Below are positions 2,985 to 60,752 of a stretch of 64,000 bases of DNA, one piece after another. Source of the stretch: Candidatus Omnitrophota bacterium (GTDB taxonomy: Bacteria > Omnitrophota > Gorgyraeia > Zapsychrales > Fredricksoniimonadaceae); contig CAIOPG010000016.1 of the NCBI GenBank assembly GCA_903860135.1, positions 2,674 to 66,673 on the forward strand. The letters run 5' to 3'. Position numbers and translations under genes: made by a program. Position 1 is the stretch's first letter. Each line of letters opens with the position of its first letter. The notes under the pieces were generated by a model. The model did no database searches. It was not told where the DNA came from and saw only the letters and a program-made list of their open reading frames with translations.

Positions 2985-2998
2985 ATACTAAATTGTTA

Positions 2999-5276: not shown

Positions 5277-5280
5277 TAAA

Positions 5281-7909: not shown

Positions 7910-7963
7910 TTCTCCTCCTAATTGTTACCGTTCTTCTATTCATTATTTCTATAAACTTAATTC

Positions 7964-8652: not shown

Positions 8653-8701
8653 ACACGTTCCTTTCTTTATTCCACACTGTGGAATGTTCGGTTAAAAAAT
8701 T

Positions 8702-9259: not shown

Positions 9260-9282
9260 TGGGGAATAAAAGTCAAGGAAAA

Positions 9283-10155: not shown

Positions 10156-10306
10156 TTTACCCTCCCTTGTTCGCCATCCAACTCGTAAGCGTTCTCTAAT
10201 TTATAATCTTCAACCCTGATAGTCCCGCAACGGCATCGAAATGTGATCTCGATGCACTCATCGCCATGATTGCGTTTCAACTCCATCCATGCGTGATGAC
10301 AGTTCT

Positions 10307-10879
10307 TCACTTTCCCCACTGCTCCTTGTCCAGTCGCTCACCCTCAAGGTACAGGTCATGAGCCAAGACATACAGCTCAGGATATGAGAGCTCGATCTTA
10401 GCCTGCCTAACCATCCGCGCACAGACTCGCACCGCCACCAACTCACCCTTGCACGTAAATACTGGGTCAAGGGTCGGAACCTTACAAAAATAGGCCTGCA
10501 AATCCTTCATCTGTCGCCAAGGCTTAGCCTTAAACATGGCCTCACCTCTGTACTCCTTTATCAAATTCCATTTCAGAGGACTGTTCGTGTAAAAATCACC
10601 CCATTGAACTTCCTTACACTCTTTCAGATCTCGACACACAATCCTCTCAAAATTAGGAGGAAGAATTAAACCACTACTCCCTAAGATTTTACTAATCCTT
10701 GCCAGCTCCTGCCTCAGCCAAGCTCGGAAATCTTCAACCGAGGTACCGGGTGGAGAATCCTTGGCATACCATATTTCATCAGTACTCATCACACCTCCAT
10801 ATATATTCCTATAAAGCAGAAATCCCTCTTTCCGTGGCATTTCTCCACGTCCAGAGGGCACAAAGGGAATCGAGGGCAA
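10307..10879 (-). CDS. hypothetical protein
   Basis: 190-aa ORF with no recognisable motif. Probable start at MSTDEIWYAKD. Confidence 0.4.
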   Translation of the reverse strand: MPSIPFVPSGRGEMPRKEGFLLYRNIYGGVMSTDEIWYAKDSPPGTSVEDFRAWLRQELARISKILGSSGLILPPNFERIVCRDLKECKEVQWGDFYTNSPLKWNLIKEYRGEAMFKAKPWRQMKDLQAYFCKVPTLDPVFTCKGELVAVRVCARMVRQAKIELSYPELYVLAHDLYLEGERLDKEQWGK

Positions 10880-11403
10880 CCCTCGAGAACATATCTATAT
10901 CCCAATAAAATTAAAACACAGAGAAAGCTCAGACACAATATTGAAACTGAGTAAATATTTTAGAGAGATATAAAACCATTAACAAAACACTCACTCTTTA
11001 AACAGGAAAGTACTAAGGGTTAATTAAAACCACTTAACCCTGCTTAAAATATTTCTAAACGATTTTAGATAGAAGAGAAATACTTTAAAAATTAAGAAGA
11101 ATATTTTAAAGTTGGTTGCTTTACAGAACTAGTACAGGTATGCCGGGAAGAACTTCCCTCTGTACCCTTTGCTCCCTTGAAAGAGCTGAGAACTCTTTCA
11201 ACAAGTTAATTATGATTAATTATTATGGGCAACCTACTATAACCATTTACCTATACTGAGAACGCTTGTCTACTCCTAAGCATCCAATAAAAAGAAAGTG
11301 CCATATACTATCGAGTAAGTAGTAAAAGAATAATGACGATCCAGAAATATAAGGCATTAAATTCTGTCTTTACCTGTTGAGATACTCGGACGGAGAAATG
11401 CTA
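10880..11403. other. 524-bp AT-rich non-coding region with a hairpin and short reiterated motifs (candidate origin or regulatory region of the element)
   Basis: No ORF. Hairpin GGGTTAAttaaaaccacTTAACCC at ~11017-11040. Repeated TTTTAGAGAGATA / TTTTAGATAGAAGAGA / AATATTTT motifs. Confidence 0.4.
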
Positions 11404-11964
11404 CTAGTTTAACCGCTTGTAAACAGCCAACCAATCATTAGCAATAACACTTTGTGCTGCACGGAGCTCCATCTGTCCAGAGCAGACCTGTTCGTGTAGG
11501 TAATTCTCAACCTTATCTTTCTCGTGGAATCCCGGCCTAGGCTCCGCTGGTTCAGGCCAGAGATTAGCAATGTCATTGGACCCACCGAGTTCTAACGGCA
11601 CCAAGTGATCTACTTCATACTCACCTTTAACACGATGCTCGACGCCATACTCAGCATAAACATCACGCTTCAATGCTACTGTAACATTTCTCATGGTCTT
11701 GGTGTAACCCGACACACAAATCTCGGCCACCGTTGCCTGTTCAAACACTGCACCGGGTGTGCAGGCCTTGTCCGGCAGTGATCCCTGCTTTACACAGTTA
11801 AAGTCTTTAGTCCTAGCACCAATAGTTGGCGTTGATTGAACAGTCTGCTGGACCTGCTGAGGTTGCGGTGTCTGTTTGTACTGCTCAGAGATAATCCAAG
11901 CAACAAGAATTAGCAACAGGAAGAATGCTGCGATCACTAAAAGGTTTCTGGCGTTAGTGTTCAA
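11404..11964 (-). CDS. membrane-anchored HNH endonuclease family protein
   Basis: N-terminal TM helix LLVIAAFFLLLILVAWI. HNH signature YEVDHLVPLELGGSNDIANLWPE. Confidence 0.65.
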   Translation of the reverse strand: MNTNARNLLVIAAFFLLLILVAWIISEQYKQTPQPQQVQQTVQSTPTIGARTKDFNCVKQGSLPDKACTPGAVFEQATVAEICVSGYTKTMRNVTVALKRDVYAEYGVEHRVKGEYEVDHLVPLELGGSNDIANLWPEPAEPRPGFHEKDKVENYLHEQVCSGQMELRAAQSVIANDWLAVYKRLN

Positions 11965-12173
11965 CCCGCATCCTCCTGATCGACCAGACCCTTCTTGGTA
12001 AAAATCTGCTTTCCATCTTCACTGTACTCGATCTCAGCGTCATCTGGGGTTAAAATTACCAGAGCAACACCCGGATCTTTGGAAAGGATCTCCACCCTAC
12101 CATCCTCATGAAACTTTATGACAACTTTCTTCGGCTTCTCTTTTTCCATAATTTCCCCAAGGTTTACAGACAA
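11961..12173 (-). CDS. small hypothetical protein translationally coupled to the HNH gene
   Basis: 4-nt overlap with the HNH start. Probable start MEKEKPKKVVIKFHEDG. Acidic C-terminus. Confidence 0.35.
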   Translation of the reverse strand: MSVNLGEIMEKEKPKKVVIKFHEDGRVEILSKDPGVALVILTPDDAEIEYSEDGKQIFTKKGLVDQEDAG

Positions 12174-12251
12174 TTATGAACAATAGTGAACATTTAACGA
12201 CTTCTATGTACCCAAAGTCGTAGAATAAGTAAACTTTCTTCCGATTTACTC

Positions 12252-12280
12252 TTGACAAGATAATGGTTTAGTATACTATA
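12252..12280 (+). promoter_or_regulatory. sigma70-like promoter for ORF 12303
   Basis: TTGACA ... TATACT/TACTAT, followed by GGAGGAAATT-ATG. Confidence 0.35.
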
Positions 12281-12302
12281 TGAAGTAAGAACGGAGGAAA
12301 TT

Positions 12303-12698
12303 ATGAGTGAAAGAACTGTTAATCCAGTATTGTTTACAAAGCCTAGATCAAAACTATCGTCAAAGACATTGACCATGAGCCCTAAAGGCGGGTTCATGTT
12401 CTCCTCCGGTGCCTGCCATGAGTGGGATCTGCTCAAGTATAAGTTCTGCATTCTTGGTTACGATCCTGTAGAAAAAGCAGTGTGTTTCCAGTTCGTAGAC
12501 TTAGCTGACTACGTTGGTGCAATAAAACTCACCATTCGTAAAGCTGGCAACCTATCCCTTCAATCAGGAGCCTTCTTTGCCTTCAACAGATTAGACCCAA
12601 AAGAACTCGCGGGCCGGTACAGCATTGTTAAGCAGGATCTCCCTGAAAAAGGCACATGGTTTGTTGCCTTCCTAGACTCTAACCACTCTAAAAAGTAA
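12303..12698 (+). CDS. hypothetical protein
   Basis: 131 aa with a strong RBS. Only plus-strand gene in this part of the element besides the putative endonuclease. Confidence 0.45.
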   Translation: MSERTVNPVLFTKPRSKLSSKTLTMSPKGGFMFSSGACHEWDLLKYKFCILGYDPVEKAVCFQFVDLADYVGAIKLTIRKAGNLSLQSGAFFAFNRLDPKELAGRYSIVKQDLPEKGTWFVAFLDSNHSKK

Positions 12699-12709
12699 AA
12701 AACATGGCA

Positions 12710-12776
12710 AACATTTACATTGATGGGCGCACCACAAGAAGAACTCCAGAATCTTCTTGTGCCAACTGTAAATGTT
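12710..12776. promoter_or_regulatory. nested inverted repeats between ORF 12303 and the putative endonuclease gene
   Basis: Outer arms AACATTTACA / TGTAAATGTT. Inner arms CACAAGAAGA / TCTTCTTGTG. No downstream T-run, so more likely an operator or attenuator than an intrinsic terminator. Confidence 0.35.
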
Positions 12777-12954
12777 GGGGGAGCCTCCAAAGCTCTCCCA
12801 GCCATGTTTTTATGTTATGAGTATACATCAAGCTAATCTATGACGCAAGGTTGACCTTATTTTTCATCCCCTGTCCTTCTAACCATGCTTAAATATCTTC
12901 GTTACATTATTTGTATATTCGGTATTATACTATTATAAAAATTGTTACCAATAA

Positions 12955-15003
12955 ATGACATCAACTACTAATCCTCAACAAATAATCAACCTATCAATTC
13001 ACGGTGATAATATCGTTGAGTGCGAACGCGCTTGGGCATTAATCAAAGATGCGTTCAATTGCCACTCAAGCACACCTTCAATTATCCCCGATTCAATTAT
13101 TGCCCCTAACTTTGAAGCATCCTCTCAAGAATATAATATTCAACTTCGTGCAGTATTTCTCCCTGGGTTTAACCGATGGAGTCCAGATATTCTAGCCCAT
13201 ATTAAGAATCGCGGCGCTATGTTACGTGAGGCTGCCGATGCTATTATTTGCCTAAATCTAACATCTAAAGATAATCAACCCATTCAAATCCCGTTGTTAG
13301 CAATCGAATTCTGTGGAGCCTTAGCTGCAGGGAATCAAGCTTGGCAACGCTGCGGTCGAGCATTAGCTTTTTCGGCAGCTAAGATTCCTTATATTTATTT
13401 AGCAGAACTAGGCGGATTTGAGTTAGATGAAGATAGAAATATAAAAGCTGTACGATTGCCTAACCCATTAATCCCATTTGCTTATCTAACATTATCATTC
13501 CAATCCGATACATTCGCATTACCCGTTTTCATTCCAAATGCGGCAGCAGATAAAACAGCCTTGACCAACTTTCATAATTGTTTTGGTTTACCTAATTTGC
13601 TCGAGCTAATTCGCCACGCTATCTTAAACACAAACCCATCCTCCTCAGCCAATGCTTTAACAGCTAAAACACTCGCACTCGTTAATATTCTATCGGACAA
13701 TCGAAAGCAAAAAGTTAAGAATACCTTTACTCCTCCACTATGGGAAGAATGGCTTAAAACAATCCATAATGATCAGACTGCTGCTACTTACATTGCACAA
13801 CAAGCACTTAGTTGGGGAAAAACAGCATATATAGCCGGACTAACTCAAACCACAAAGAATGTTATCAACTCCGCGCCGAAATATGCGATTGGCGCCGGAG
13901 CATCTCAAGTCCCAATCTGTGTAGTTCCCGCAAGCCAACGCGTCAATTTTGCTAACTTTATCATCACGCAATATCCAAAGTTAACACCTCAATTTCGTAA
14001 TTGGCTTAAAGAAGACCGGCCTCTTGGTATTTGCTGGGTAATGGGATTCAAACCTCGAGGGGATGACGCTCGACCTGATCGTGGACTTCCCCCTCTAGCT
14101 CGTATGATATTTGGACCCAAGACTGATCTCTTAACATTTGTCTATGGACCTGCCAAACCATTCTCCTGGCCCTTATTGCACAATAAACCACAACAATTAG
14201 CTAATCAAAATGGGCTTTGGGAAGCAATCTTAGCAATGAGCGATGCAATATTGGTAGACAGCATTACGGATAAAAATATTACAGATAAAGGCTACCTTCG
14301 CAGCCACTGGCATAAGGCTCAATCACCAATACCTCCATCTCCACTCCCGGTTAGTGTTATCACTCCAACATCACTCGGAGAGAATGATGTTGACACCGTA
14401 ATACACCTCCTAATGACTTCCAATAAAGAAATAGTATTCGAAGGTATGTGCAACCCGCCCGGCGGAGATTGGAGTGGTATTTCAATTAAGGATAGTGCTA
14501 ATAATGTAACTCTGGAGAAGCGTTGGCTTTCCCTGCCAAGGGTTAGCGCACAACAACACAAAAGACCAGACCATGTCTTTCAAATATTCTTTCCGAATAA
14601 GCTTCCGATTATTCTCTCAGTTGAATCTAAGGAGAAATCATCTGACGTCGAGCCAAATATCGGCGAAAGACTTTCTGGCTACATTCAACAGCTTATGAAA
14701 GTTCCATCCTCCGTAGAACGAGAGTTCCCCAAAGGAGCTTGGAAGGTATCAGTCGATAAAATTGATCTAAAGAAATTTAGATTCGCATCAGCTGTGGCAT
14801 TCTTATCAGATAGTAATAATGAATTAGAAATTGCCAAAAAGAAATCTCAAGCAGATTTGATAATTGGAATAACGATATCAGCTAACGGAAAAGATGCGGA
14901 ATTGAAACTGCTTGCAGGATCACCTATTGGAACAGAATTGCTCACATCAATTCATTCCTTAACAAAAATATCAAGACTACCTATAAAAGCCTCAATAATT
15001 TAA
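12955..15003 (+). CDS. large uncharacterised protein, candidate restriction endonuclease of a two-methyltransferase R-M module
   Basis: 682 aa. Convergent with, and 12 nt overlapping, the Dam-family methyltransferase gene. C-terminal half has a PD...ESK arrangement (RPDHVFQIF...ILSVESKEK) compatible with a PD-(D/E)xK nuclease. No methyltransferase motifs. Confidence 0.45.
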   Translation: MTSTTNPQQIINLSIHGDNIVECERAWALIKDAFNCHSSTPSIIPDSIIAPNFEASSQEYNIQLRAVFLPGFNRWSPDILAHIKNRGAMLREAADAIICLNLTSKDNQPIQIPLLAIEFCGALAAGNQAWQRCGRALAFSAAKIPYIYLAELGGFELDEDRNIKAVRLPNPLIPFAYLTLSFQSDTFALPVFIPNAAADKTALTNFHNCFGLPNLLELIRHAILNTNPSSSANALTAKTLALVNILSDNRKQKVKNTFTPPLWEEWLKTIHNDQTAATYIAQQALSWGKTAYIAGLTQTTKNVINSAPKYAIGAGASQVPICVVPASQRVNFANFIITQYPKLTPQFRNWLKEDRPLGICWVMGFKPRGDDARPDRGLPPLARMIFGPKTDLLTFVYGPAKPFSWPLLHNKPQQLANQNGLWEAILAMSDAILVDSITDKNITDKGYLRSHWHKAQSPIPPSPLPVSVITPTSLGENDVDTVIHLLMTSNKEIVFEGMCNPPGGDWSGISIKDSANNVTLEKRWLSLPRVSAQQHKRPDHVFQIFFPNKLPIILSVESKEKSSDVEPNIGERLSGYIQQLMKVPSSVEREFPKGAWKVSVDKIDLKKFRFASAVAFLSDSNNELEIAKKKSQADLIIGITISANGKDAELKLLAGSPIGTELLTSIHSLTKISRLPIKASII

Positions 15004-15810
15004 ATACAAAGACTCCTCCACCATATTCTTCGTCTTATCTATTACTTTTCTGAAACTCGAATAACCTGAGCGCAAAAGAAAATGCCTCTTATATAATGAT
15101 TTCGGAATTTCTACAGAATAATCTTTCTCCGTACTCTTCCCATCGAACGACAATGCGTATTTTATCTTCTTCTTATTTAAACGATTCAATTCATCAAGAA
15201 ACTCACTAAAATTAATTGTGCCATAATATCGCCCCTTTGTATAAAAATATGGCGGATCTAAATATACAAAATCTCCAGTTTCAACTCTCGCCAAAGTCTT
15301 TCTATAATCACCGACACAAAAGTCAACTGGCTTCACAACCTCTTGCCACTCTACTAGAATTCCCGCCAATCTTTCAGGCTGGATGCCTCTTCTTGTATGA
15401 TGTAATGAATTGTTAAACTCCCCATTCTTATTAAATCTAATAAGCCCATTCACGCATGTCCTAGAAAGAAAGAAGAGATCATATGGACTATGTGTTTCAT
15501 TAAACCGATTACGAACATCATAAAAGACTAAATGACCGTCGGCCTTCAATCTATTCCACTCCTTCTGATAATAAGTCAACAAACTATCTGGAGAATCTTG
15601 AACGACTTTCCATAAATCAATAAGCGGCTTACAAATATCACTGCAAACAGCAATCTTAGGTCGAAGATATGAAATTATAGATCCCCCACCAATAAATGGC
15701 TCGTAATAGCACCCTAAATCCTGAGGGAACTTACTCACTATCTCTTTAGCTTGACTTCGTTTACTACCTGTCCATTTAATGATTGGCATCAATGAATTTC
15801 CAAGTCTCAT
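14992..15810 (-). CDS. Dam-family (alpha-class) N6-adenine DNA methyltransferase, DpnM-like
   Basis: IIKWTGSKR (the KWAGGK-type motif of the Dam family). Motif I EPFIGGGS precedes motif IV TGDFVYLDPPY. Confidence 0.85.
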   Translation of the reverse strand: MRLGNSLMPIIKWTGSKRSQAKEIVSKFPQDLGCYYEPFIGGGSIISYLRPKIAVCSDICKPLIDLWKVVQDSPDSLLTYYQKEWNRLKADGHLVFYDVRNRFNETHSPYDLFFLSRTCVNGLIRFNKNGEFNNSLHHTRRGIQPERLAGILVEWQEVVKPVDFCVGDYRKTLARVETGDFVYLDPPYFYTKGRYYGTINFSEFLDELNRLNKKKIKYALSFDGKSTEKDYSVEIPKSLYKRHFLLRSGYSSFRKVIDKTKNMVEESLYLNY

Positions 15811-16640
15811 CGTGATTCATCCCCTTTTACAAAAAGGTCAGGCTCGGTAAATTCAACCCTTTCTTTCGCGAGTTTAATATATTCCTCACTTATTTCAAAT
15901 GCAATATATCGACGATCCAACATTTTTGCGGCTACACATTCTGTTCCAGACCCACAAAATGGAATCAAACAAACATCTCCCGGCTTACTCGCAATAGAAA
16001 TAATTCTATCTGCTATTCTAATAGGCTTCTGAGTTGGATGAGAACCATACTTCCGTTCAACTTTCGTCTTATTATTGGGAATATCCCAGACGGTTCTCAT
16101 CTGCTTCCCCTTCTTCTTCAACAAGTCTTCAGCAAAATCACCATTCTTAGTATACGGATAATTAAAGAAATACTTTCGCTTCCCTTTACCATAATGGCCC
16201 CATAACAACGTTTCATGACTTGCAGTCAAACGCCGCCCTGACAAATTGGGGAATGAATTCCTTTTATACCAAACAACCTCATTAATAATTTCAATTCCTA
16301 GAAGTTGAAATACGAAGTTTATAACTCCAATATTATGATATGTTCCATATACCCAAATAGAGCCTGTAGGCTTCAACAATCGCTTTGCTTCAGTCAACCA
16401 AGCTAGAGTGAAATTAAAATATTCACTTAGCCCCATACAGTCCCAATCTTCCATCACTTTATTCCAAACGCCACCCATGCCCTTCAACTCAACACTTTTA
16501 TCCCATCCCCACTTATTGCCTTTCGACAAATTATATGGTGGATCAGCAATAATTAAGTCGATTGAGGAATCTGGCAAGGCCTTCATCCCGTCGACACAAT
16601 CCTGATGTATTATTGAATTTAGAGATTTTTCTATCTGCAT
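15807..16640 (-). CDS. beta-class N6A/N4C DNA methyltransferase, DpnA-like
   Basis: DLIIADPPYN near the N-terminus and SHPTQKP...IPFCGSGTECVAAKMLDRRYIAFEISEEY near the C-terminus (D12-class order, collinear with DpnA). ATGA overlap with the Dam-family gene. Confidence 0.85.
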   Translation of the reverse strand: MQIEKSLNSIIHQDCVDGMKALPDSSIDLIIADPPYNLSKGNKWGWDKSVELKGMGGVWNKVMEDWDCMGLSEYFNFTLAWLTEAKRLLKPTGSIWVYGTYHNIGVINFVFQLLGIEIINEVVWYKRNSFPNLSGRRLTASHETLLWGHYGKGKRKYFFNYPYTKNGDFAEDLLKKKGKQMRTVWDIPNNKTKVERKYGSHPTQKPIRIADRIISIASKPGDVCLIPFCGSGTECVAAKMLDRRYIAFEISEEYIKLAKERVEFTEPDLFVKGDESR

Positions 16641-16758
16641 ATTTTAATTTATCCCACATTGTAATAACATAAACTACTCAAGACAAGGTATTTAGCATTT
16701 TCGCAATATTAACATTTCATTATAACAACCCAACCTCCACAACAACGGTTTTAATTTC

Positions 16759-17247
16759 GTGATGAATCCCTGCCCATGCGGCCACCTGGGCGACCGCAAC
16801 AAAGCCTGCCGCTGCAGCAGCGCGCAGATCCAGCGCTACCAGATAAAGATCTCGGGCCCCTTGCTTGACCGCATCGATATTCATCTGGATGTCCCGGCCC
16901 TCAAGACTGATGACCTGTTGAATGCGCCTTCGGGCGAATCGTCCGAAACGATCCGGGCGCGTGTCCTGACAGCGCGTGAACGCCAGCTGGAACGTTTTAA
17001 AGGCGAGGACGTTTTTGCCAACACCCAGATGTCACACCGCCACATCCGCAAACACTGTGCCCTGGATAAAGCCGCGCAAAAACTGCTGAAAGATGCGGTA
17101 GAAACCCTAGGGATCTCGGCCCGCGCCCACGACAAGATCCTGCGCCTGGCCCGCACGATCGCCGACATCGACGGGGCTGACACGATCAACACAGGACATC
17201 TCTCTGAAGCTATCGGGTACAGGACGCTGGACAGGACAAGCACATGA
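16759..17247 (+). pseudogene. comM: comM/yifB 3' portion (C-terminal domain) separated from its 5' part by the insertion
   Basis: MNPCPCGHLGD...LLDRIDIHLDV... matches the ComM/YifB C-terminus. Continues exactly where 1902..2984 breaks off. Confidence 0.85.
16762..16779. repeat. right junction repeat ATGAATCCCTGCCCATGC (candidate attR core)
   Basis: Second copy of the MNPCPC-coding 18-mer, 2 mismatches to the left copy. The comM reading frame resumes here. Confidence 0.6.
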
Positions 17248-17867
17248 TCCAGCTACAGAAAACATTTACATCACATACGAAAAGAAACCGTGTGACATCC
17301 AAAACAACACTTATCCTCACAGAAAGAATTCAACAACGCATATTCTTTGTCCGTAACAAGAAAATCATGCTGGACAAAGACCTCGCTCTTTTGTACGACG
17401 TTGAAACCCGCACACTCAACCAGGCCGTTAAACGTAATGCCCGAAGATTCCCCGAAGATTTCATGTTCCAATTGACTAAGAAAGAATTAACTGAGGTTAT
17501 CACAAACTGTGATAACCTCCCGGATCTAAAGTTCAACCCGTCCCGTCCATACGCTTTTACAGAACACGGCATCCTTATGCTCTCCAGCGTCCTTAACAGC
17601 GAAAAAGCTATCGAAGTTAACATCCAGATCATGCGGACATTCACACAACTGCGGGCGCTGATGGCAACACACAAAGACCTTCAACTCAAGATCACGGCGT
17701 TAGAAAAGCAGTACAACCGGCAATTCAAAATCGTCTTTGAAGCCATCAGAAAACTCATAGAACCGTCTTTAGCACCACAAAGACAAAAACTACCGATCGG
17801 ATTTCATGCAAGGGCGACAGAGGAAACCCCCTCTCACCCCTTGGGCTGTTGCAGAAGGCAGAAATGA
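17244..17867 (+). CDS. ORF6N domain-containing protein
   Basis: IFFVRNKKIMLDKDLALLYDVETRTLNQAVKRNARRFPEDFMFQLT is the ORF6N signature. Overlaps the comM stop by 4 nt. Confidence 0.7.
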   Translation: MIQLQKTFTSHTKRNRVTSKTTLILTERIQQRIFFVRNKKIMLDKDLALLYDVETRTLNQAVKRNARRFPEDFMFQLTKKELTEVITNCDNLPDLKFNPSRPYAFTEHGILMLSSVLNSEKAIEVNIQIMRTFTQLRALMATHKDLQLKITALEKQYNRQFKIVFEAIRKLIEPSLAPQRQKLPIGFHARATEETPSHPLGCCRRQK

Positions 17868-18190
17868 TAAAGTTTATGGCAATTTTCCTCGGCCTGGGGG
17901 CCGTCGACGATAAATTTAACGCCGGTGCGATAATCATCTTCGTCATTCATGGGAAAACACCAGGCCACCTCTGCTGTAAAATTGACCTGCCCCTCAAAAG
18001 GGATCTCCAGGATAATGCGCACTTTCTCCCCTTTAGAGAGGTGCTGGGCGGCCTGAAAACATCCTCCGCGATGATGGATATCAACAATACGCATGATGTC
18101 ATACCGGGCTGGCCCGTCAATGATACGGTATTTTGCCGGCAGATCAACCGCGATCCTTATCCATTCCCTCTGTTCACGGCCTTCGCGCAT
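17834..18190 (-). CDS. PilZ domain protein
   Basis: RxxxR (REQREWIR) plus D-I-H-H-R-G-G elements of the c-di-GMP-binding PilZ motif. 118 aa. Confidence 0.55.
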   Translation of the reverse strand: MREGREQREWIRIAVDLPAKYRIIDGPARYDIMRIVDIHHRGGCFQAAQHLSKGEKVRIILEIPFEGQVNFTAEVAWCFPMNDEDDYRTGVKFIVDGPQAEENCHKLYHFCLLQQPKG

Positions 18191-18202
18191 ACCACCCTCC
18201 TG

Positions 18203-19138
18203 TTAGACATCCTTGATATTCTTCTGCAATACCGGAATCTCTATCCCCTCGGCCTTGAAGGCCGCGATCATCCTGCGGTTGATGTCAAAACGGACATCCC
18301 AGTAATTTTTCTGCGGGCACCACAACCGCGCAAAAACATTAATCCCTAGGTCCGTAAAATCCGTAATCCCGACCTGCGGCGGCTTATCCGCGGCCACATG
18401 CGGATTACTGCGGACAATGCCTTCAAGGAGATGGATCGCCCTGTCCACATCAGCCCGGTAACTGACCAGGACCGAGACATCCACGCGCTTGCAATTTGAA
18501 TAGTTATGGATGACCTCTCCAACAATATGCTTGTTAGGGATAACCACCGTCTCATTATCCAACGTTGAAATAACGGTACAGGAAAGTTTCATGTCCACGA
18601 CTTCTCCGACGACACCAGCCACCTCGATGATCTCGCCGACCTTGAAAGGCTTTGTGAAGATAAGCGTCGCGCCGGAAGCATAATTCGACAACGGCCCCTG
18701 AAGCGCAAAGCTCGTACCAAACCCCACCACAGAAATGCCGGCGATAAATGGCGCAATCTCAATACCGAACTTACTGAGTGCCACCACAAGGGCGAACAGC
18801 ATAATGACCAGACGGATCGCCCCTGCCATGAATTTTGATACGGTGATATCCACCTGCCGGTCATCAAAATATTTCTGCGCCCCGCGCGCGGCATATTGCG
18901 CGATGAACCATCCCAGCGCAAGAACAACACATCCGCCAAGCACCTGAAACGCATACTTGACCACATACAGCATGACCATATGCAGGACTTCTTGAACCGC
19001 CCCCAAATGCTCTTGTGCCACAGTTCCAGCCAGTCCGGCTGTCTCCGCCGCCGATGCCGACGCAATAGAAAATAAAAATCCCGATAAACACAATAAAACA
19101 CGCGACATGATCAACGACCTCCTGTTAAATATACACAA
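18203..19138 (-). CDS. mechanosensitive ion channel, MscS family
   Basis: TM helices followed by the conserved MscS beta domain (FKVGEIIEVAGVVGEVVDMKLSCTVISTLDNETVVIPNK). Confidence 0.85.
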   Translation of the reverse strand: MCIFNRRSLIMSRVLLCLSGFLFSIASASAAETAGLAGTVAQEHLGAVQEVLHMVMLYVVKYAFQVLGGCVVLALGWFIAQYAARGAQKYFDDRQVDITVSKFMAGAIRLVIMLFALVVALSKFGIEIAPFIAGISVVGFGTSFALQGPLSNYASGATLIFTKPFKVGEIIEVAGVVGEVVDMKLSCTVISTLDNETVVIPNKHIVGEVIHNYSNCKRVDVSVLVSYRADVDRAIHLLEGIVRSNPHVAADKPPQVGITDFTDLGINVFARLWCPQKNYWDVRFDINRRMIAAFKAEGIEIPVLQKNIKDV

Positions 19139-19266
19139 ACAACCCGAACCTCCTGCTTTAATCGCACATCATTAAAGCATGGAGGTCCGGTCGTTACAAG
19201 ATAAAAGAAACAGACATACTGCGCACCGATCAATTTACACAGCGGACGAATGGCGCTCTCCTTACG

Positions 19267-19956
19267 TTATTGAACGATATCCCCTTTAAGAGATACCGTA
19301 TACCCCTTGATGGCAAGGCTCTTGCCCGAACGCTTGAGCGCCTCTTTCACGATCGCCACCGTTGCTCCACAACAAGGCACTTCCATCCGCAGCACAGTCA
19401 CAGACCTGATGTTATTCAGATGAAAAATATCCCCGAGTTTCACCGCATATTCTTCCGTGTCCTCATCGAGCTTTGGGCAGAAAATAACCAACACCTTCCC
19501 CTTCAGGAACGCCTGATGGAAATCCCCATGAGCAAACGCCACACAATCCGCGCTCACGACCAGATCAGCATCTTGGAAGAATGGCGCCGAAGGGCTAAGC
19601 AAACGCAACTGCACCGGCCACTGCCTTAACGCCGAAGTTGACGGGCTGTGTGCCTCTGCCGAAGCGCACGGTGCCTCCTGCCTGAAATCCTGCGTCAGGC
19701 TCCCCGGGCATCCACACGGTAACATTTCATGATGCACAGGCTCCGGCGCAACAAAGTCGCCAGCCTCACGCTCCTCCAGAGAAATAGCCCCCTGCGGGCA
19801 CTCTCCCAAACATGCCCCCAACCCATCGCACAAAGCGTCCCCGACCAAGCGCGCCTTTCCCCCGATGATCCTGATCGCCCCTTCATGGCACGAAGGGATG
19901 CACGCGCCGCAACCATTGCATTTAACCTCGTCGATCTTTACGATTTTTCTACGCAT
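19267..19956 (-). CDS. 4Fe-4S dicluster domain protein
   Basis: CNGCGACIPSC and CDGLGACLGECP ferredoxin motifs plus C-terminal PCCG. Sits downstream of an Rrf2 regulator. Confidence 0.55.
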   Translation of the reverse strand: MRRKIVKIDEVKCNGCGACIPSCHEGAIRIIGGKARLVGDALCDGLGACLGECPQGAISLEEREAGDFVAPEPVHHEMLPCGCPGSLTQDFRQEAPCASAEAHSPSTSALRQWPVQLRLLSPSAPFFQDADLVVSADCVAFAHGDFHQAFLKGKVLVIFCPKLDEDTEEYAVKLGDIFHLNNIRSVTVLRMEVPCCGATVAIVKEALKRSGKSLAIKGYTVSLKGDIVQ

Positions 19957-20006
19957 AACACTCCTTAGTAATAGGATGATATAGGTATCGTTAATGTATA
20001 AAAAAA

Positions 20007-53427: not shown

Positions 53428-53488
53428 AACACCACCTCCTGAAGCTTGCTGGATTTTGACCAGTATAGCAGAAAATAATTTGTTCCGA

Positions 53489-54000: not shown

Positions 54001-54091
54001 ATTTTTCCCTAAGAAAGAATTCAGATTTCAACCTACAATTCTTAAATATTTAGTATAACAGAAAAACACTTTTTGCCCCTATAAAAAGCAG

Positions 54092-54111
54092 TTACACTAC
54101 TTTTCCTTAAG
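54092..54111 (+). repeat. copy A of repeat family (TTACACTACTTTTCCTTAAG)
   Basis: Matches the consensus GGAACACACTACTTTTCCTTATA also found at 54239-54255 (inverted), 59285-59311 and 59803-59827. Confidence 0.6.
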
Positions 54112-54238
54112 AAAACTTTCTCCCGTCTATTGCCCCGCTGAATTACATGATGTGACTGCTCCATTGGGAGGGGATAAAATGATTAATTTAGCAGTTAATA
54201 TTCTCCATCAGGGCTACAAATTTTGATCAGTGCTGCCT

Positions 54239-54255
54239 CAAAAGTAGTGTGTCCC
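54239..54255 (-). repeat. copy B of repeat family (GGGACACACTACTTTTG, inverted relative to copy A)
   Basis: Inverted pair with copy A ~145 bp apart. Directly abuts the premature stop of the DUF1016 fragment. Confidence 0.6.
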
Positions 54256-54263
54256 TGGTTTCT

Positions 54264-54659
54264 CTAAAAAAGAGCCTCATCAATATCTTTACTCTCTGAA
54301 ATAATCGCAATGTTGTGTCCCCAAGGGACTCGGGTTAATTGGGCAACAACTTGTTGCCCAATTGCAGCCCCCTGTCCATAGAATGCATACCATTGCCGAA
54401 TGTACTTCAAATTTCTTTCCGAGAATCCTTTCATATCGGGAAATTCATTCATTAGATCTTTACTTAAACGAGATAATAATCCATCACCCCATTTAGATTT
54501 CTTTTGTTGAATACTAATATCCGCTCCGATGCTCAAATATAAATTAAGCAACTCGGTATTAACTGAAACAGCCGCTTTAATCTGAGAAGAGCGCACTCTT
54601 GTTTTAATATCAGCAAGCCAGTTTTTATACTCTTGATCAATAATCTTAGATGATTTCAT
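54264..54659 (-). pseudogene. DUF1016 (YhcG-like, PDDEXK nuclease family) N-terminal fragment
   Basis: SKWGDGLLSRLSKDLMNEFPDMKGFSERNLKYIRQWYAFY...VPWGHN matches the DUF1016 N-terminal region. Full-length proteins are ~340 aa. This ORF stops at 131 aa exactly at repeat copy B. Confidence 0.55.
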
Positions 54660-54724
54660 GTTTTATCTCCGACTTACCATAACAATTGATACGCAACAAA
54701 GAATTACCGTCCATACAAAACTAT

Positions 54725-55573
54725 TCACATCAATTTATCAATCTGAGCACACTCGCTTTGAGTAAGCTCGAAATTAAAGATTTCTTGGTCTTCATGCATA
54801 TGTGCTTCAGATGTTGTGCCGATGAGAGGGATAATATCGTTCTGGATCAAGGCGCGAAACAGGATATGGGCCGGAGAGCATTGGTAATGTGCGGCCAGAT
54901 TCTGAAAGACGCTGTGCGCTAGAAGATGGGGATTAGCCGTGATGATCCAGAACCCCTCGTAAAGAATACCCCGCTCCCGGCAAAAAGTCCTGATGGAACG
55001 ATCGTATCCAGTCTCTTGATAAAAGCGGTTTTGAACGACTGCCGGCTTGATGCGCGCCGCTTGATACAACCACTCCAGGTCTTCAAGTTCGTAACAATTG
55101 CTGATGCCTAGTTGCCGAACACTCCCGCTGTCGACACCTGCCTCCATCGCCTGCCAGACCTCCCGCATTTGCGCTTCAGTCTGCAAAGGGGAATGCAGGA
55201 GCAGACAGTCCAGCACATCGGTCCGAAGATTGCGCAGTGAGGCGATCAATGACTGGCTAACTTGTTGCGCCAGACTTGCCGATGGATCATAGGGGATATT
55301 CCCGGGATCCTGCCCCCTCACGGGAGTAAACTTACTCTGAATGTAAAGGTCACTGCGCGTGAGCCCTGTATCCAAAGCCAGCGCTATCCCTTCACCCACA
55401 CCCGGTTCGTTGTAATGTTTTGGCTGACAGGCGGTATCGATGCCGCGGAATCCCGACCTGATGGCCGTTGCGACAAGAGGCGCAGTGCGATCCTTTTTCC
55501 AGGCTGTGCCGTAAAGGATCTGGGGAATGCTAACACCACTACTGGACACCAAGCGAGTCTTTTCACCGCTCAT
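54725..55573 (-). CDS. aldo/keto reductase
   Basis: ILYGTAW, GFRGIDTAC ... and the AKR catalytic tetrad context. Confidence 0.8.
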   Translation of the reverse strand: MSGEKTRLVSSSGVSIPQILYGTAWKKDRTAPLVATAIRSGFRGIDTACQPKHYNEPGVGEGIALALDTGLTRSDLYIQSKFTPVRGQDPGNIPYDPSASLAQQVSQSLIASLRNLRTDVLDCLLLHSPLQTEAQMREVWQAMEAGVDSGSVRQLGISNCYELEDLEWLYQAARIKPAVVQNRFYQETGYDRSIRTFCRERGILYEGFWIITANPHLLAHSVFQNLAAHYQCSPAHILFRALIQNDIIPLIGTTSEAHMHEDQEIFNFELTQSECAQIDKLM

Positions 55574-55837
55574 GACTGTCTTTACCCCTCATTGTGGTGA
55601 CAAACACCATTTCTTACTACTTACCATAACAACCGACCTGCCATGTGTTCACAAACTTTTAGAACTGCGTTCTAAACCTTGCTAAAGGAATGAACGACGT
55701 TGACGCATCATTTTTGCCCTTTGCAACGTTTAACAAGCCTATCTGCAGTCCTGATATCCGTTCTACTTGATTAATAACTCCTACTTGAACACCAATAAAA
55801 TCAAGGGCGCGGTTATAAACACCCACCTGAAGCTTGC

Positions 55838-56440
55838 TCATGATGTTACTACTTTCATGGATGCTATGATTGTCAGGACGCCGTTACGAACCATCATCAC
55901 ACCTATAGCGGCCAGTAAAAGATACATAACCTTTGATAGCGCGCGTGCCCCACTCGCCCCGATCAGACGAATGAGTCTGTCTGAAAAGAAAAACACCACG
56001 CCCACAATAACTAAATTGGAAAGAACGGACACTAGCGTCACCGCCCAGCCATACTGATTCATCTGCATCAAAGCCAGCGTCAGCACGGCCGGCCCAACGA
56101 TCAATGGCGTCCCGATCGGCACAACAGCCAGATCCGATGGCTTAACCTTTCTGGTCTGCAACGACCGTCCCATCAAATCCGCCATCGATAAACAAAAAAG
56201 GATAGCACCGCCAGCGATCATAAAATCGCCAATACCAATACCTAGAAAACCAAGTAGAAATTTCCCAAGGAAGATAAAACTGATGGCCAGGATCGTAGCC
56301 GTAGCCAACGATTGAAAAATAATACTGCGCTTTTGCTCACGAGACAACCCTTGGGTTAAACCAGCAAAAACAGCCAAAATCCCAAGAGAATCAACAGCGA
56401 AGAACATGGGAATAAACGCCAAAAGAATGTCATTAAACAT
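55838..56440 (-). CDS. MarC-family (UPF0056) membrane protein
   Basis: Six hydrophobic helices. FIPMFFAVDSLGILAVF N-terminus typical of MarC. Confidence 0.75.
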   Translation of the reverse strand: MFNDILLAFIPMFFAVDSLGILAVFAGLTQGLSREQKRSIIFQSLATATILAISFIFLGKFLLGFLGIGIGDFMIAGGAILFCLSMADLMGRSLQTRKVKPSDLAVVPIGTPLIVGPAVLTLALMQMNQYGWAVTLVSVLSNLVIVGVVFFFSDRLIRLIGASGARALSKVMYLLLAAIGVMMVRNGVLTIIASMKVVTS

Positions 56441-56622
56441 GGCTTGCTACCGCCGATCTTTTAAAAATCTGAATATAATCTTTAACTGGTCATCCACTGA
56501 CCACTCCCACTTGCCATAATCCCCGGCCACCTTCAGGTTGTGAGAACTAGGGACGCTTTTGTAACCATTGCAAGATATAGACTTACGAGATGCGAAATAA
56601 TTCTGTGCCTAAATTGTGCCAA

Positions 56623-57666
56623 CTACTTTTTAACCTGCCAGGCCTTTTGATCCACACTTGAAATATGCTCCGCCATATCCTGGACCTTCACATACCACAG
56701 CTTCCCCTTCTTCTGAGCCTTGAGTTCTCCGCGATTGATCAGGTTGCGCAGGTAATCCTGGGAGTAATCATAAAGCTGGGCCAAGTCACGCAAAGGCACA
56801 ACGGCATCCTTGTTCATGCTCCTTGTTGTGCCGTTCTTCATCCGCTTAACACTTTCAGCCAACCGCTCCAGGACGATCTTTTTCAAACCCGTCAATGGAA
56901 CATCTGTAATGATCCCTTCCGCTTGCTCCAAGGATAACTTCTTCCCTTTCTCAAGCCTCCGATTGATCTCCTCAAAACAATCATCCCCCTGCTCCAGGGC
57001 ATTGTAATAAAGGTCTCGGTCCAACTTGGAGAACCCCTTGATCGCAATATTAAGATGTCCACTGCCTATGAGGATATAATTCAAAAGGATGCGCCCGGCA
57101 CGACCATTGCCATCCCTGAAAGGATGTATCGTTTCAAACCATGTATGGGTCAAAGCCGCCAGCGTTACAGGCGAATACTTTGACAGCTTCAAGTGCCTGT
57201 TGGTCCAGCGAACCATCAAATCAACAGCCTCACGCACATAAAAATGATCGATCGGTTTGAACTTAGACTGCGTCACTTCGGCTGTTGTCTTACGAAAGTC
57301 CCCGATCTCGCCAATATAAGTGCCAAGTTCCCTCTCATACCTCATGAGGATCGTGTGGATCTGCTTAACATCCGCCATGCGCAGGCAAAACTCTCCCTCA
57401 CGCCACTGGTTATACGCATACTCATAGATGGTACTCGCCGCCTCAAAATACCCAAGGATCGCCGCAGCCTTCTCTTTATTGGTCTTGCTGTTATGCTCCA
57501 GGACATCGATCAGCTCCTGCCGATTGGCAAAGACGCCCTCGATGGCAATAGAATTGCGAATCTCCTCCCGAAAGAGCGAATACCACTCCGCGTTCTGGAC
57601 GGTAACAAGCCGATCGTCATTGGACCGTAACGCCGCGATGGCCTTCTTCAAACCTTTTTCATCCAT
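56623..57666 (-). CDS. Fic family protein
   Basis: Fic motif HPFRDGNGRAGR. C-terminal winged-helix-like region. Confidence 0.85.
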   Translation of the reverse strand: MDEKGLKKAIAALRSNDDRLVTVQNAEWYSLFREEIRNSIAIEGVFANRQELIDVLEHNSKTNKEKAAAILGYFEAASTIYEYAYNQWREGEFCLRMADVKQIHTILMRYERELGTYIGEIGDFRKTTAEVTQSKFKPIDHFYVREAVDLMVRWTNRHLKLSKYSPVTLAALTHTWFETIHPFRDGNGRAGRILLNYILIGSGHLNIAIKGFSKLDRDLYYNALEQGDDCFEEINRRLEKGKKLSLEQAEGIITDVPLTGLKKIVLERLAESVKRMKNGTTRSMNKDAVVPLRDLAQLYDYSQDYLRNLINRGELKAQKKGKLWYVKVQDMAEHISSVDQKAWQVKK

Positions 57667-57681
57667 AAATACAACCCTTTA

Positions 57682-57893
57682 TTTGCGAACCACCTTATAT
57701 GGTTCGGAAATAGTATATCCTATCAGCGACGATATGCAAGGAATAATATCTCGAATCTATCGAACTTTGCGAACCAAGATCCCAGGAACAAAAACGCGCC
57801 TTTGGCGAACCAGTCAACATGGTTCGCAAATTAATAGACATCCTCCGACGAGACTGACATCTAAATACGGGAATTAATCGAACTTTACGAACC
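57682..57893. promoter_or_regulatory. repeat-dense region upstream of fic: two palindromes and two direct repeats sharing a GCGAACC half-site
   Basis: TTTGCGAACC-N9-GGTTCGGAAA (~57682-57710). TTTGGCGAACC-N9-GGTTCGCAAA (~57801-57830). CGAACTTTGCGAACC (~57761-57775). CGAACTTTACGAACC (~57879-57893). Confidence 0.4.
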
Positions 57894-58032
57894 TTTCGAA
57901 GATCATGTTATGAGGGCGATGGTCAATGTTGTAACTATTAACGACATATATACTTACGAGACGCGTCTAAAAAATGTGCCCCCGGATTAATCTCAGATTA
58001 TCAGCAGGCTCGGGATCGGGATGACACGCGAG

Positions 58033-59238
58033 TCATTTCTTTGGCGGGCGCTCGCCAAAGTACTGGTAATAGTTGGTTTCAATCGTGGCATTGAAAAGCT
58101 TACGCACCTTGTCCGGCTTGGCGCGCTTAAAAAAATCCGGGAACCGCTGGTCAGGCGTCAGAAAATACAGGGACCAGCCGGTCTTATTCTTCAACATTTT
58201 GTTGAGCGCAATATAGACCCCTGTGAGTTCCTTAAGACTCCCGATATGTATGCCGTACGGCGGATTGGAGATCATGACGCCGTATTGTTTGTCGATCCAC
58301 AGGTCCTTGATATCTTTCTGTTCAAAGGTGATGTCCTTTAAAACGCCGGCTCGCAGGGCATTGGCTTTAGCGTCCTTAATGCGCTGGGGATCAATGTCAG
58401 AGCCGAATATCAAAAGATTCCCCTCGGGAAGGATCGCCGCGCGAGCCGCATTGCGGGCATCGTCCCAGGCTTTTTTATCGATCTGAGCCCAGGCCTCGGC
58501 AGCAAAAGAACGGTTGAGGCCTGGTGCGATGTTGCGCCCGATCATGGCCGCTTCGATCAGAATGGTCCCTGCCCCACACATCGGGTCAATGAGGATCCGG
58601 TCTTTGTCCCAAAAGCTCAAAAGGACAAGTGCGGCCGCCATGGTCTCTCTGATGGGCGCTTCCCCCCTATCCATCCGATAACCCCGCTTGTGAAGCCCCC
58701 GCCCCGTTGCATCGAGCGTGAGGGTCGCCACATTGTTGGTGATCGCGATCTCGACGATGAACTCGGGGCCCGTCTCGGGAAGAGCCGTTTCACCGCGATC
58801 TCGATCTGAGCCCAAAGGGCGAGGCTCGCTTCGTTTCGCGGGGAGACGGCCAAAGAATTTCTCTTGAAGACGGTTCACGATCGCTCTTTTGACAATGGAT
58901 TGGCAGGCCCTGATACTCATAAGTGTGGAGCGCACGCATTTGCCGGTGACCGTGATCATCGCATCTTTCGGGATCCATTCCTCCCAAAGGACCGCACTTG
59001 TGCCGTCGAACAATTGATCAAAATCACCCGCCGGAAATTTCGCGATCTTAAGGAGCACGCGGTCCGAGACCCGCAGGGAAATATTGAGCCGCGGGATATC
59101 ATCAAAGGTGGCGGCAAACTCAATCCGCCCATCAGCTGTGGCGTAATCCGTAATCCCCAAGGCCTCAAGCTCGCGCTTGACAACAGCCTCCAACCCAAAG
59201 GCGCACGTAACGATCAGAGTAATACTTGTCGCGTTCAT
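58033..59238 (-). CDS. THUMP-domain class I SAM-dependent RNA methyltransferase (RlmL/YpsC family)
   Basis: N-terminal THUMP-like region and MTase motifs (DPMCGAGT, MISNPPYG). Confidence 0.7.
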   Translation of the reverse strand: MNATSITLIVTCAFGLEAVVKRELEALGITDYATADGRIEFAATFDDIPRLNISLRVSDRVLLKIAKFPAGDFDQLFDGTSAVLWEEWIPKDAMITVTGKCVRSTLMSIRACQSIVKRAIVNRLQEKFFGRLPAKRSEPRPLGSDRDRGETALPETGPEFIVEIAITNNVATLTLDATGRGLHKRGYRMDRGEAPIRETMAAALVLLSFWDKDRILIDPMCGAGTILIEAAMIGRNIAPGLNRSFAAEAWAQIDKKAWDDARNAARAAILPEGNLLIFGSDIDPQRIKDAKANALRAGVLKDITFEQKDIKDLWIDKQYGVMISNPPYGIHIGSLKELTGVYIALNKMLKNKTGWSLYFLTPDQRFPDFFKRAKPDKVRKLFNATIETNYYQYFGERPPKK

Positions 59239-59263
59239 ATTTTAGACACCTTAAGTTTTCTTA

Positions 59264-59407
59264 ATAACATTTCGTAAAAAAACAGGAACACACTACTTTT
59301 TCCTTATAATCAATGAGCTGACTGGCCGCGACCTTAACTTCAGCCTTATCATTCGGTGGCAGCTGCTTGATCGAGCGATCAAATGAGAGTTTAAACTCAA
59401 ATCTCAT
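59264..59407 (-). pseudogene. RelE/ParE-like toxin gene remnant (first ~35 codons), truncated at repeat copy C
   Basis: ATG overlaps the upstream antitoxin stop (ATGA). MRFEFKLSFDRSIKQLPPNDKAEVKVAASQLID then reads into the repeat (YKEKVVCSCFF) and stops. Confidence 0.4.
59285..59311 (+). repeat. copy C of repeat family (GGAACACACTACTTTTTCCTTATAATC)
   Basis: Direct-orientation copy. Sits at the truncation point of the relE-like remnant. Confidence 0.6.
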
Positions 59408-59673
59408 AAGCTGGCAAGATGGTTCTTGGCTGATTCATCGCTTGAGAAAGTTTTCCCCTTCTCGGACGCTAATTTCTCAATCTTCTGCCACTCCTTGGGT
59501 GTATACGGGGATTTAGCAGTTACTTCACACGGCATCAGCATGATGCCATTCTTGCCAATACCAAAAGCGATTGAAGACCCTTCCTCAAGATGCAAAAGCT
59601 TGCGAATCCGGCTGGGAATAGTGACCTGCCCCTTGGTTGTTACTTTGGCAGTCTCGATAATAGTCATACCCAT
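59404..59673 (-). CDS. AbrB/MazE/SpoVT-type DNA-binding antitoxin-like protein
   Basis: TKGQVTIPSRIRKLLHLEEGSSIAF swapped-hairpin motif. 89 aa. Confidence 0.7.
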   Translation of the reverse strand: MGMTIIETAKVTTKGQVTIPSRIRKLLHLEEGSSIAFGIGKNGIMLMPCEVTAKSPYTPKEWQKIEKLASEKGKTFSSDESAKNHLASL

Positions 59674-59802
59674 TGTCCTTTCGTTATTATTCCTTACTTC
59701 CTTACAGTAAGGATATAATACTTTCGACTCAACGTCAACTTTTCATCATGATCCATATAATCCGCGACAATCTATACGTCATATGCCCATCGGTTAAAAC
59801 CC

Positions 59803-59827
59803 GGAACACACTACTTTCCTTATAGAC
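59803..59827 (+). repeat. copy D of repeat family (GGAACACACTACTTTCCTTATAGAC)
   Basis: Direct copy ~520 bp from copy C. Together they bracket the mazE-like/relE-remnant cassette. Confidence 0.6.
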
Positions 59828-59889
59828 TCCTTTATATTAAATGACCGTTCCCCGTTAATTCAAGCTAAAGCAACTTATCATAATCCCTG

Positions 59890-60566: not shown

Positions 60567-60752
60567 TAATTACCCCCCTACTTGCCATAATAACCGGCCT
60601 ATTAAACCCGGATTGTGCAATAGCCGTCTTTCATCGACGCAACCGTTGGCACAAAAACATGCGTTGTTATTTCAACTGGCCTTCCACAATTTTACCGTCT
60701 AGGAAAGGCCCGGGTTCAACCCGCATTACCTCTGTCTATTGAAAAATGCGGG

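Follow-up and report, generated by a model that had tools for sequence, protein, structure and literature searches.

A short repeat in a toxin-antitoxin island of Candidatus Omnitrophota, read as the terminal repeat of a decayed TIRYT-type element

In a stretch of 64,000 nucleotides of Candidatus Omnitrophota DNA (contig CAIOPG010000016.1 of assembly GCA_903860135.1, hereafter the window), copies of a short repeat stand at places where genes are cut short. This raises the question of what kind of repeat it is, and of whether it has any part in the truncation or the exchange of the genes that lie beside it. A first-pass annotation had proposed a site of recombination or insertion at which cargo is exchanged, and it had left two origins side by side: the end of a small element of the kind of a miniature inverted-repeat transposable element (MITE), or a cassette boundary akin to the attC sites of integrons. 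Our preferred answer, to which we give a probability of about 0.6, is that the repeat is the terminal repeat of a TIRYT element, of the RAYT superfamily, which is found as an inverted pair around a decayed transposase gene and as solo copies elsewhere. It would then be an ordinary kind of bacterial repeat rather than an integron-like cassette site, with a possible role in exchange. Read in this way, the result would account for three pseudogenes (those of a DUF1016 nuclease-family gene, a RelE-like toxin gene and the transposase), it would correct an integron reading that is attractive but unsupported, and it would extend the TIRYT repeat families to Candidatus Omnitrophota. The coordinates of the features are collected in Table 1.

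The inverted pair and its transposase remnant

The core of the repeat, ACACTACTTT, has four exact matches in the window, three of them on the plus strand (54094-54103, 59290-59299 and 59808-59817) and one on the minus strand (54241-54250), where 0.08 are expected from shuffled sequences and where none of 100 shuffles reached four. This confirms the four copies, termed A to D, at the places first described. Their earlier description as a 23-bp repeat holds once insertions and deletions are allowed, but a search of the window for the 23-mer GGAACACACTACTTTTCCTTATA as written finds nothing without gaps when up to three mismatches are allowed, because the length of a T-run differs between C and D and because copy A is without the GGRAC motif. 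When the copies, including those of relatives, are aligned with insertions and deletions, the consensus is AAAAAACCGGGACACACTACTTTTTC (in shorter forms AACCGGGACACACTACTTTTT and CCGGGACACAC, also written AACCGGGACACACTACTTTT), and its invariant core contains GTAG (CTAC). A profile of the repeat used with nhmmer finds B (E 1.7e-6), C (E 4.8e-6) and D (E 1.2e-5) as strong matches and A (E 0.006) as a diverged one.

Copies A and B do form the inverted pair that had been described, and we read them as the ends of one small element. The accompanying claim that no transposase lies here turned out to be wrong, since the spacer between A and B encodes the beginning of a TIRYT-type transposase. The corresponding open reading frame (ORF) of 40 aa gave no result in NCBIfam, Pfam, the PDB, a word-indexed protein search or an exhaustive HMMER search. 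Because the piece is too short for such standard searches, a TIRYT profile was built from the 19 sequences that Di Nocera et al. 2013 (PMC3733652) give in their Additional file 5. Run against 2587 six-frame segments of the window, it yields a single match, to the A-B spacer (E 1.1e-5, 22.7 bits, the next best scoring 1.7), in which the remnant covers positions 11-37 of the profile, where the block PHHVxQRGNNRQxxFF, with its hallmark HHVxQRGNxRxxVF, is conserved. Copies A and B are inverted around these 18 codons, with B about 70 nt upstream of the ATG. At the other end the transposase frame enters copy A after codon 18, and the remainder of the gene is therefore lost, which leaves the remnant without the HUH motif and the catalytic tyrosine. 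Thus, the MITE-like description is right as to the ends of a small element but not as to its interior, which is not coding-free. In one sample, the 30 nt encoding HHVIQRGNR are exactly the stretch by which two Logan contigs overlap, and such an overlap, as a branch of the assembly graph, suggests that further copies of the gene exist in that metagenome.

TIRYTs are Y1 (HUH) transposases related to those of IS200/IS605, and a TIRtron is a TIRYT gene between inverted repeats (Di Nocera et al. 2013, PMC3733652). As described in the same work, the RAYT-like TIRYT genes have on either side long inverted repeats, as opposed to palindromes, with GGGGWSAS in common, and the TIRtron repeat families consist of single, dimeric or grouped copies in moderate numbers. 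Most TIRYTs fall into subclass 2.1, and no REP-like structures are found around them (Quentin et al. 2018, PMC6006769). The present locus resembles TIRtrons in its Y1 transposase with HHVxQRGN, in its inverted repeats devoid of hairpins, in what may be a GGGGWSAS-like motif, and in copies that are single, paired or clustered and moderate in number. In particular, GGGGWSAS is matched at 7 of 8 positions by copy B (AGGGACAC) and at 8 of 8 by a copy in the related locus L054 (GGGGACAC), while C and D have GGAACAC and A is degenerate. As for hairpins, when 12 copies or strands were folded as single-stranded DNA their z-scores ranged from -1.35 to +1.34, and none did better than shuffles. We read A and B as TIRtron ends because of the GGGACAC/GGGGACAC motif, the lack of a fold, the inverted pair that brackets the transposase stump, and the small and clustered family. 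The locus also differs from the published cases: its transposase is an 18-codon stump; it has an invariant GTAG, which is the classical tag of the repetitive extragenic palindromes (REP), whereas the published terminal inverted repeats (TIR) are described as unrelated to GTAG repeats; its host phylum lies outside the published TIRYT surveys; and its copies are concentrated in one toxin-antitoxin island.

Table 1. Features of the repeat-bearing region (window coordinates)
Feature	Position	Strand	Remarks
Weak inverted copy GGAACAAATTATTTT	53472..53486	-	directly past DUF2442 stop; 3 mismatches; membership uncertain
Copy A	54082..54111	+	TAAAAAGCAGTTACACTACTTTTCCTTAAG; diverged terminal repeat 3' of transposase remnant, inverted relative to B
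Transposase remnant	54111..54164	-	RAYT/TIRYT-type Y1 (HUH), first 18 codons MEQSHHVIQRGNRREKVF; called ORF 54042..54164
Copy B	54233..54264	-	minus-strand TAGAGAAACCAGGGACACACTACTTTTGAGG; upstream terminal repeat of transposase remnant
DUF1016 nuclease-family fragment	54264..54659	-	N-terminal 131 aa; Pfam DUF1016_N positions 1-111 of 137
Short variant ACTTACCATAACAATTG	54672..54688	+	directly upstream of ribosome-binding site of DUF1016 fragment
Short variant ACTTACCATAACAACCG	55619..55635	+	45 nt upstream of aldo/keto reductase gene
Short variant ACTTGCCATAATCCCCG	56509..56525	+	upstream of MarC gene
Degenerate copy CAACTACTTTTTAACCTGCCAGGCC	56620..56644	+	overlaps Fic stop; core TAG = Fic stop codon
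Truncated copy CCGGGGGCACATTTTTTAGA	57966..57985	-	about 50 nt past methyltransferase stop
RelE-like toxin pseudogene	59261..59407	-	48-aa ORF; 33 native codons, then copy C
Copy C	59276..59309	+	solo; 47 nt upstream of RlmL-type methyltransferase start; directly downstream of RelE locus
Deletion junction TCAATGAGCT	59310..59319		single remaining copy of 9-10-bp direct repeat
AbrB/MazE-type antitoxin	59404..59673	-	intact in window
Copy D	59796..59827	+	solo; 63 nt past S4-domain gene stop, 130 nt upstream of AbrB
Short variant ACTTGCCATAATAACCG	60580..60596	+	13 nt upstream of cupin gene start

The repeat can also be compared with REP and with the related BIME and REPIN repeats, which it resembles in being short, intergenic, mostly downstream of genes and found in both orientations, in its conserved GTAG, in the Y1 transposase flanked by inverted copies, and in its vertical inheritance and decay. 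It differs from them in that there is no palindromic stem-loop of 20-40 nt and in that the copies are far fewer and clustered. A system of this classical type is found about 4 kb past the window end, where a second Y1 transposase, a RAYT of 193 aa, is encoded (L041 5494-6075, about window 67924-68505; Pfam Y1_Tnp E 0.008, HUH motif PNHLHGIV). It is accompanied by a 52-nt repeat (L041 5731-5782, 5990-6041 and 7778-7829) that starts with a GTAG-tagged perfect palindrome, GTAGGGAACGGTCGCGACCGTTCCGTAC, and of which one copy lies inside the RAYT gene just past the HUH motif, with copies after the gene as well. This is a repeat of the classical REP type with its own RAYT, and its sequence differs from that of the window repeat; a RAYT with GTAG-tagged palindromic repeats at this distance means that the lineage hosts such systems. 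On its far side, copy D is flanked by TGACCGTTCCCCG (59846-59858), of which 9-10 nt recur in one half of the L041 palindrome.

Solo copies and truncated genes

The repeat is a wider family, with at least ten copies within 53.5-60.6 kb. On the gene strand its members are laid out around a core AAGTAG, with a right arm TGTGTCCCGGTTT and a more variable left arm, GTTGTTAWGG, to which GGGGCAGATAACCGC is added farther out in the copies of ELA167, an Omnitrophota metagenome-assembled genome (MAG). Copies C and D and at least six diverged copies of this region are read as solo members of the family. A proposal that the ELA167 left arm is a relic of the transposase N-terminus was rejected, profile support for it being nil. 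A shorter variant, ACTTRCCATAAYAAC, is found at 54672, 55619, 56509 and 60580, always on the plus strand and nowhere else in the window; its alignment to the interior of the full-length copies from ELA167 has 46% identity, and because this identity is low its membership in the family is probable rather than established. A motif resembling this short variant, GGGGATTATRRKAAGTDG, is found in three copies on an unrelated contig of 40% G+C (L047, 903-3128), where each copy lies 6-45 nt before the next start codon, between defence-type genes in the order HNH fragment, pP_pnuc_1, DUF6602 with its partner, and a Metallophos-ORC/CDC6-like gene.

The copies are intergenic, usually directly past a stop codon, and the region that bears them, an island of toxin-antitoxin, Fic and nuclease-type genes, varies between strains. 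A profile search of the other 57 kb of the window gave nothing comparable except a weak match at 12.47 kb (12466-12493, AAAAAGCAGTGTGTTTCC, E 0.005), which lies inside a called gene of a probable integrated element, has GCAG in place of GTAG, and is probably due to chance.

Beyond the window, the family is also present in ELA167, in L025 and in L054. With one genome scanned for each species, the extended pattern came up twice in ELA167 and otherwise only as scattered single matches, and a scan of metagenomes for the repeat added near-identical contigs. Most public matches to the 20-nt pattern were discarded as chance or coding matches, such as the CxxC zinc-finger codon run in L023 and L030, and the viral contigs held one chance match. 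In locus L006 of ELA167, four to six copies separate DUF4160/DUF2442, Phd/RelE and HigB/HigA pairs and small ORFs. Locus L004 has a single copy among housekeeping genes, directly past a complete VapC gene and inverted with respect to the genes, which has 40 nt in common with copy B, the TAG stop codon among them. In L054 a methyltransferase at least 90% identical to that of the window stands among neighbours that are all different, and a good copy of the repeat, GGGGACACATTACATTTT (TCGGGGACACATTACATTTT), lies 45 nt past its stop, at the very site where the window has a truncated copy. This indicates that some copies are old and inherited. The methyltransferase itself, of the RlmL/THUMP type (58033-59238), keeps at least 90% identity in three lineages with wholly different neighbours: in the window these are AbrB-RelE and Fic, in L054 they are a CysJ-like reductase and HipBA, and in a third lineage (P0147 contigs) they are Fic/Bro-N genes with IS3 and IS21 transposases. 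It appears to sit in a hypervariable spot. The window belongs to a metagenome contig of 130.8 kb, and the proteins that match its release factor 3, methyltransferase and Fic protein at 90% identity or more carry the name Candidatus Omnitrophota.

How the repeat relates to the truncated genes can be asked at two places, and the first is the DUF1016 fragment. The first-pass annotation had copy B abutting the premature stop of this 131-aa fragment, and indeed the outermost triplet of B is the TAG stop codon. DUF1016 homologues run on (...EALFYVQKT...), while the native part here stops at ...DEALF. The C-terminal part was not found by tblastn in the window or in L001 (74 kb), and no close full-length relative was found, the best non-self match being 69% identical; a DUF1016 fragment from another Omnitrophota locus (P0042, L045) has no copy of the repeat. 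If A-B and one flanking TA are removed from the window, the DUF1016 frame reads F*GQK, against FYVQK in the native protein, which is a weak hint that the element may have inserted at a TA in DUF1016 and that a further deletion then took the remainder. The truncation at the outer edge of B fits such an insertion followed by a deletion; as no close intact relative was found, we infer the insertion step.

The second place is the RelE locus. Here an AbrB/MazE-type antitoxin gene does lie between C and D, as first reported, and the RelE-like frame does run into copy C, after 33 native codons, but the repeat is not the cause of the truncation. A metagenome contig near-identical to window 58.3-59.5 kb (L025) has the RelE-like gene intact, with 92 aa, and an identical copy C about 11 nt past its stop. 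In the alignment with this contig the window lacks 189 bp (columns 145-333), namely the 3' 59 RelE codons and the stop, bounded by TCAATGAGCT and TCAATGAGTT, and the lost segment is flanked by the 9-bp direct repeats TCAATGAG(C/T)T. Because copy C was already present past an intact RelE gene in L025, and because the loss is a deletion between short homologies, it was not the repeat that cut RelE. Between L025 (1258-1440) and the window (59404-59673) the decay of this pair is reciprocal: in the window the toxin is lost while the antitoxin survives, whereas L025 keeps the toxin and its antitoxin has lost the N-terminal half, the gene upstream also differing from that of the window. A second event of the same kind is found past the methyltransferase, where the window has CCGGGGGCACATT joined to TTTTAGACG and L059 has two GCACATT-type stretches 65 nt apart; the window junction looks like a fusion of the two.

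Under the TIRYT reading, these observations could be ordered as follows. An element would have inserted into or next to DUF1016, and deletions would then have removed about 220 C-terminal DUF1016 codons and nearly the whole transposase gene. The solo copies may have arisen as in REP and TIR families, copied or mobilised by the Y1 transposase on single-stranded DNA, and they would then have been inherited vertically while decaying. By now the copies would mostly be passive marks in the sequence, and deletions and replacements through short homology would build up next to them. Several points weigh against this reading. Only 18 codons of the transposase are left, and Pfam, NCBIfam, the PDB and the two large protein searches are blank on them; none of the loci examined has an intact TIRYT flanked by the repeat; GGGGWSAS is a short motif that most copies match at 7 of 8 positions; in ELA167 and L047, where copies stand between cassettes, the few kb of available sequence contain no Y1 gene; and the family membership of the short ACTTRCCATAAYAAC copies depends on one alignment of 46% identity. 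In addition, we know of no experimental demonstration of the action of a TIRYT on its own repeats.

Cassette boundary, regulatory sequence or miniature transposon

The rival explanation that survives best, although we consider it unlikely, is that the repeat is a boundary at which modules of one or two genes (toxin-antitoxin, Fic, nuclease or defence genes) are inserted, swapped or lost, through an unseen, integron-like site-specific recombinase or a Y1 transposase that excises what stands between two direct copies. The layout of the island speaks for it, since nearly every unit of one or two genes between 53.5 and 60.6 kb is separated from the next by a copy, mostly in one orientation, and since the gene pairs of L006 are each followed by a copy. 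So do comparisons between strains. In strain L039 another gene, whose reading frame ends on the core TAG, stands upstream of the aldo/keto reductase gene, and the homology with the window begins at copy 55619; an 83%-identical homologue of that other gene is found in L047, in an unrelated defence-gene cluster, and is followed there by the same short motif. The conserved methyltransferase has wholly different neighbours among relatives, and assemblies break at copies: in other assemblies, contig ends fall in the interval from the S4 stop to D, at the Fic stop and within the spacer of A and B, and two Logan contigs overlap exactly at the Fic-stop copy (56620-56644). The copies thus coincide with places where close strains differ or assemblies break. 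As they lie exactly at strain-variable toxin-antitoxin junctions, this lineage is a reasonable one in which to test whether TIRYT enzymes move neighbouring genes. However, any dispersed repeat breaks assemblies and attracts rearrangements without being a dedicated site. Breakpoints are also found inside genes and away from the copies, as in the AbrB gene of L025 and in the RelE deletion, the copy of L004 stands alone among housekeeping genes, and no cassette recurs in identical form at a second site, DUF2442 of the window being only 45% identical to that of L006. Of the earlier proposal of a recombination or insertion site with exchange of cargo, what stands is that the repeat is related to a mobile element and lies at variable junctions, while a dedicated role in exchange is at most a possibility.

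The integron-like form of this explanation fares worse. The island is like attC arrays, and like clusters of attC sites lacking integron-integrases (CALINs), in its short and promoter-poor cassettes, many of them toxin-antitoxin genes, in their common orientation, and in having one repeat per boundary, often over the stop codon. An IntI at the end of the array is optional for CALINs. The island differs from them in that R''/R' boxes, a folded bottom strand and an IntI are all missing, and in that some copies are inverted or isolated. Indeed, the copies have neither a hairpin (the z-scores given above) nor, by inspection, the attC boxes RYYYAAC/GTTRRRY, and the attC-like boundary is not supported. 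That no integron integrase lies in the region was borne out, with none in the window and none within 10 kb beyond its end; more generally, there is no tyrosine recombinase in these 74 kb. The sole recombinases are two serine recombinases at 3.7-10.2 kb, about 45-50 kb away, in a separate and probably integrated element.

There is also a likeness to the pdif sites of Acinetobacter plasmids, the XerC/XerD sites on either side of toxin-antitoxin and resistance modules, in that small modules, some of them toxin-antitoxin pairs, have a short repeat as their boundary. The XerD arm has the sequence TTATGTTAAAT, which the short variant, as TTATGGTAAGT, matches at 9 of 11 positions. The difference is that there is no conserved second arm and no 6-nt spacer, and that the 17 nt upstream vary from copy to copy. 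Inspected by eye, the short variant was not retained as a sigma-54, dif/Xer or sigma-70 site either, the spacing or the second half-site not being conserved. The more particular idea that a Y1 (HUH) transposase excises and re-inserts any module of one or two genes lying between direct copies, so as to make up a cassette system, seems to us more doubtful still. If it were true, Omnitrophota would shuffle toxin-antitoxin and defence genes in an integron-like manner, with neither an integrase nor attC hairpins.

It is quite improbable that the repeat is a cis-regulatory sequence (a promoter, operator or 5'-leader) shared by co-regulated genes of the island. Most copies are oriented as the genes are, and some short ones lie 6-15 nt before a ribosome-binding site or start (those at 54672, 60580 and in L047), but across all copies the distance to the next start ranges from 6 to 235 nt. 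Copy B and the copies of L004 and L054 have the opposite orientation and lie directly past stop codons, and the core TAG serves as the stop codon of upstream genes. A sigma-70 scan found 12 sites, against 14.7 in shuffles, with none at the copies; promoters and terminators alike were no more numerous than in shuffles, none being at the copies, and Rfam had no known RNA family in 52-64 kb at E<=1.

The poorest candidate, and in our view a highly improbable one, is the end of a DDE-type miniature transposon (an IS630/Tc1-like MITE with TA target duplication), for which the imperfect inverted repeats of about 30 nt in A and B, 170 bp apart with TA outside each, and the DUF1016 frame described above upon removal of A-B and one TA would speak, but against which stand the single inverted pair among otherwise solo copies with no second full-length copy found, a distance from TA to GGRAC that varies from 6 to 13 nt among copies, the small weight of a flanking TA in AT-rich DNA, a spacer that encodes a fragment of a Y1 and not of a DDE transposase, and the lack of any visible IS630-type gene.

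Surroundings of the island

Apart from the repeat, the window and its flank hold other traces of mobile DNA. A probable integrated element occupies 1902-20000, next to a ComM-like Mg-chelatase gene of reduced length (360 aa, 1902-2984). The element encodes two serine recombinases, one large (3666-5141) and one smaller (9283-10155), together with an MCM-family helicase (5281-7368), a protein with an ORF6N domain and two DNA methyltransferases (14992-16640). Past the window end there is a mini CRISPR array at L001 1287-1524 (about window 67715-67952), with four copies of a 36-nt repeat, GTTACGACTGGACGACAAAATTTAAGTGGTTAGAAT, at a 66-nt period. A lone Cas2-family gene (L001 1596-1934) adjoins it, with no other cas genes within 10 kb, and a partial inverted copy of the CRISPR repeat lies on the other side (L001 2692-2710).

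Within the island, two direct copies of a sequence of about 75 nt, with about 75% identity to each other (56545-56612 and 57915-57990), stand past the Fic and methyltransferase stops and so bracket Fic. In relatives the downstream end of this sequence leads to a fragment that resembles the 3' half of tRNA-fMet, with likeness scores, for an E. coli query, of 45 (L059 1508-1538) and 39 (L054 9405-9447) against a shuffle maximum of 30. This may be a sign of old integrations at a tRNA-Met gene; there is no intact tRNA in the island, and Rfam finds no partial tRNA in L054 or L059. Lastly, the region upstream of the HTH-Fic gene has a 29-nt inverted repeat (57678-57706 and 57806-57834) and a 23-nt direct repeat (57753-57775 and 57871-57893). 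All of these are built on GGTTCGCAAA and are conserved in L059, and they are probably operator sites for the HTH domain of the Fic protein itself.

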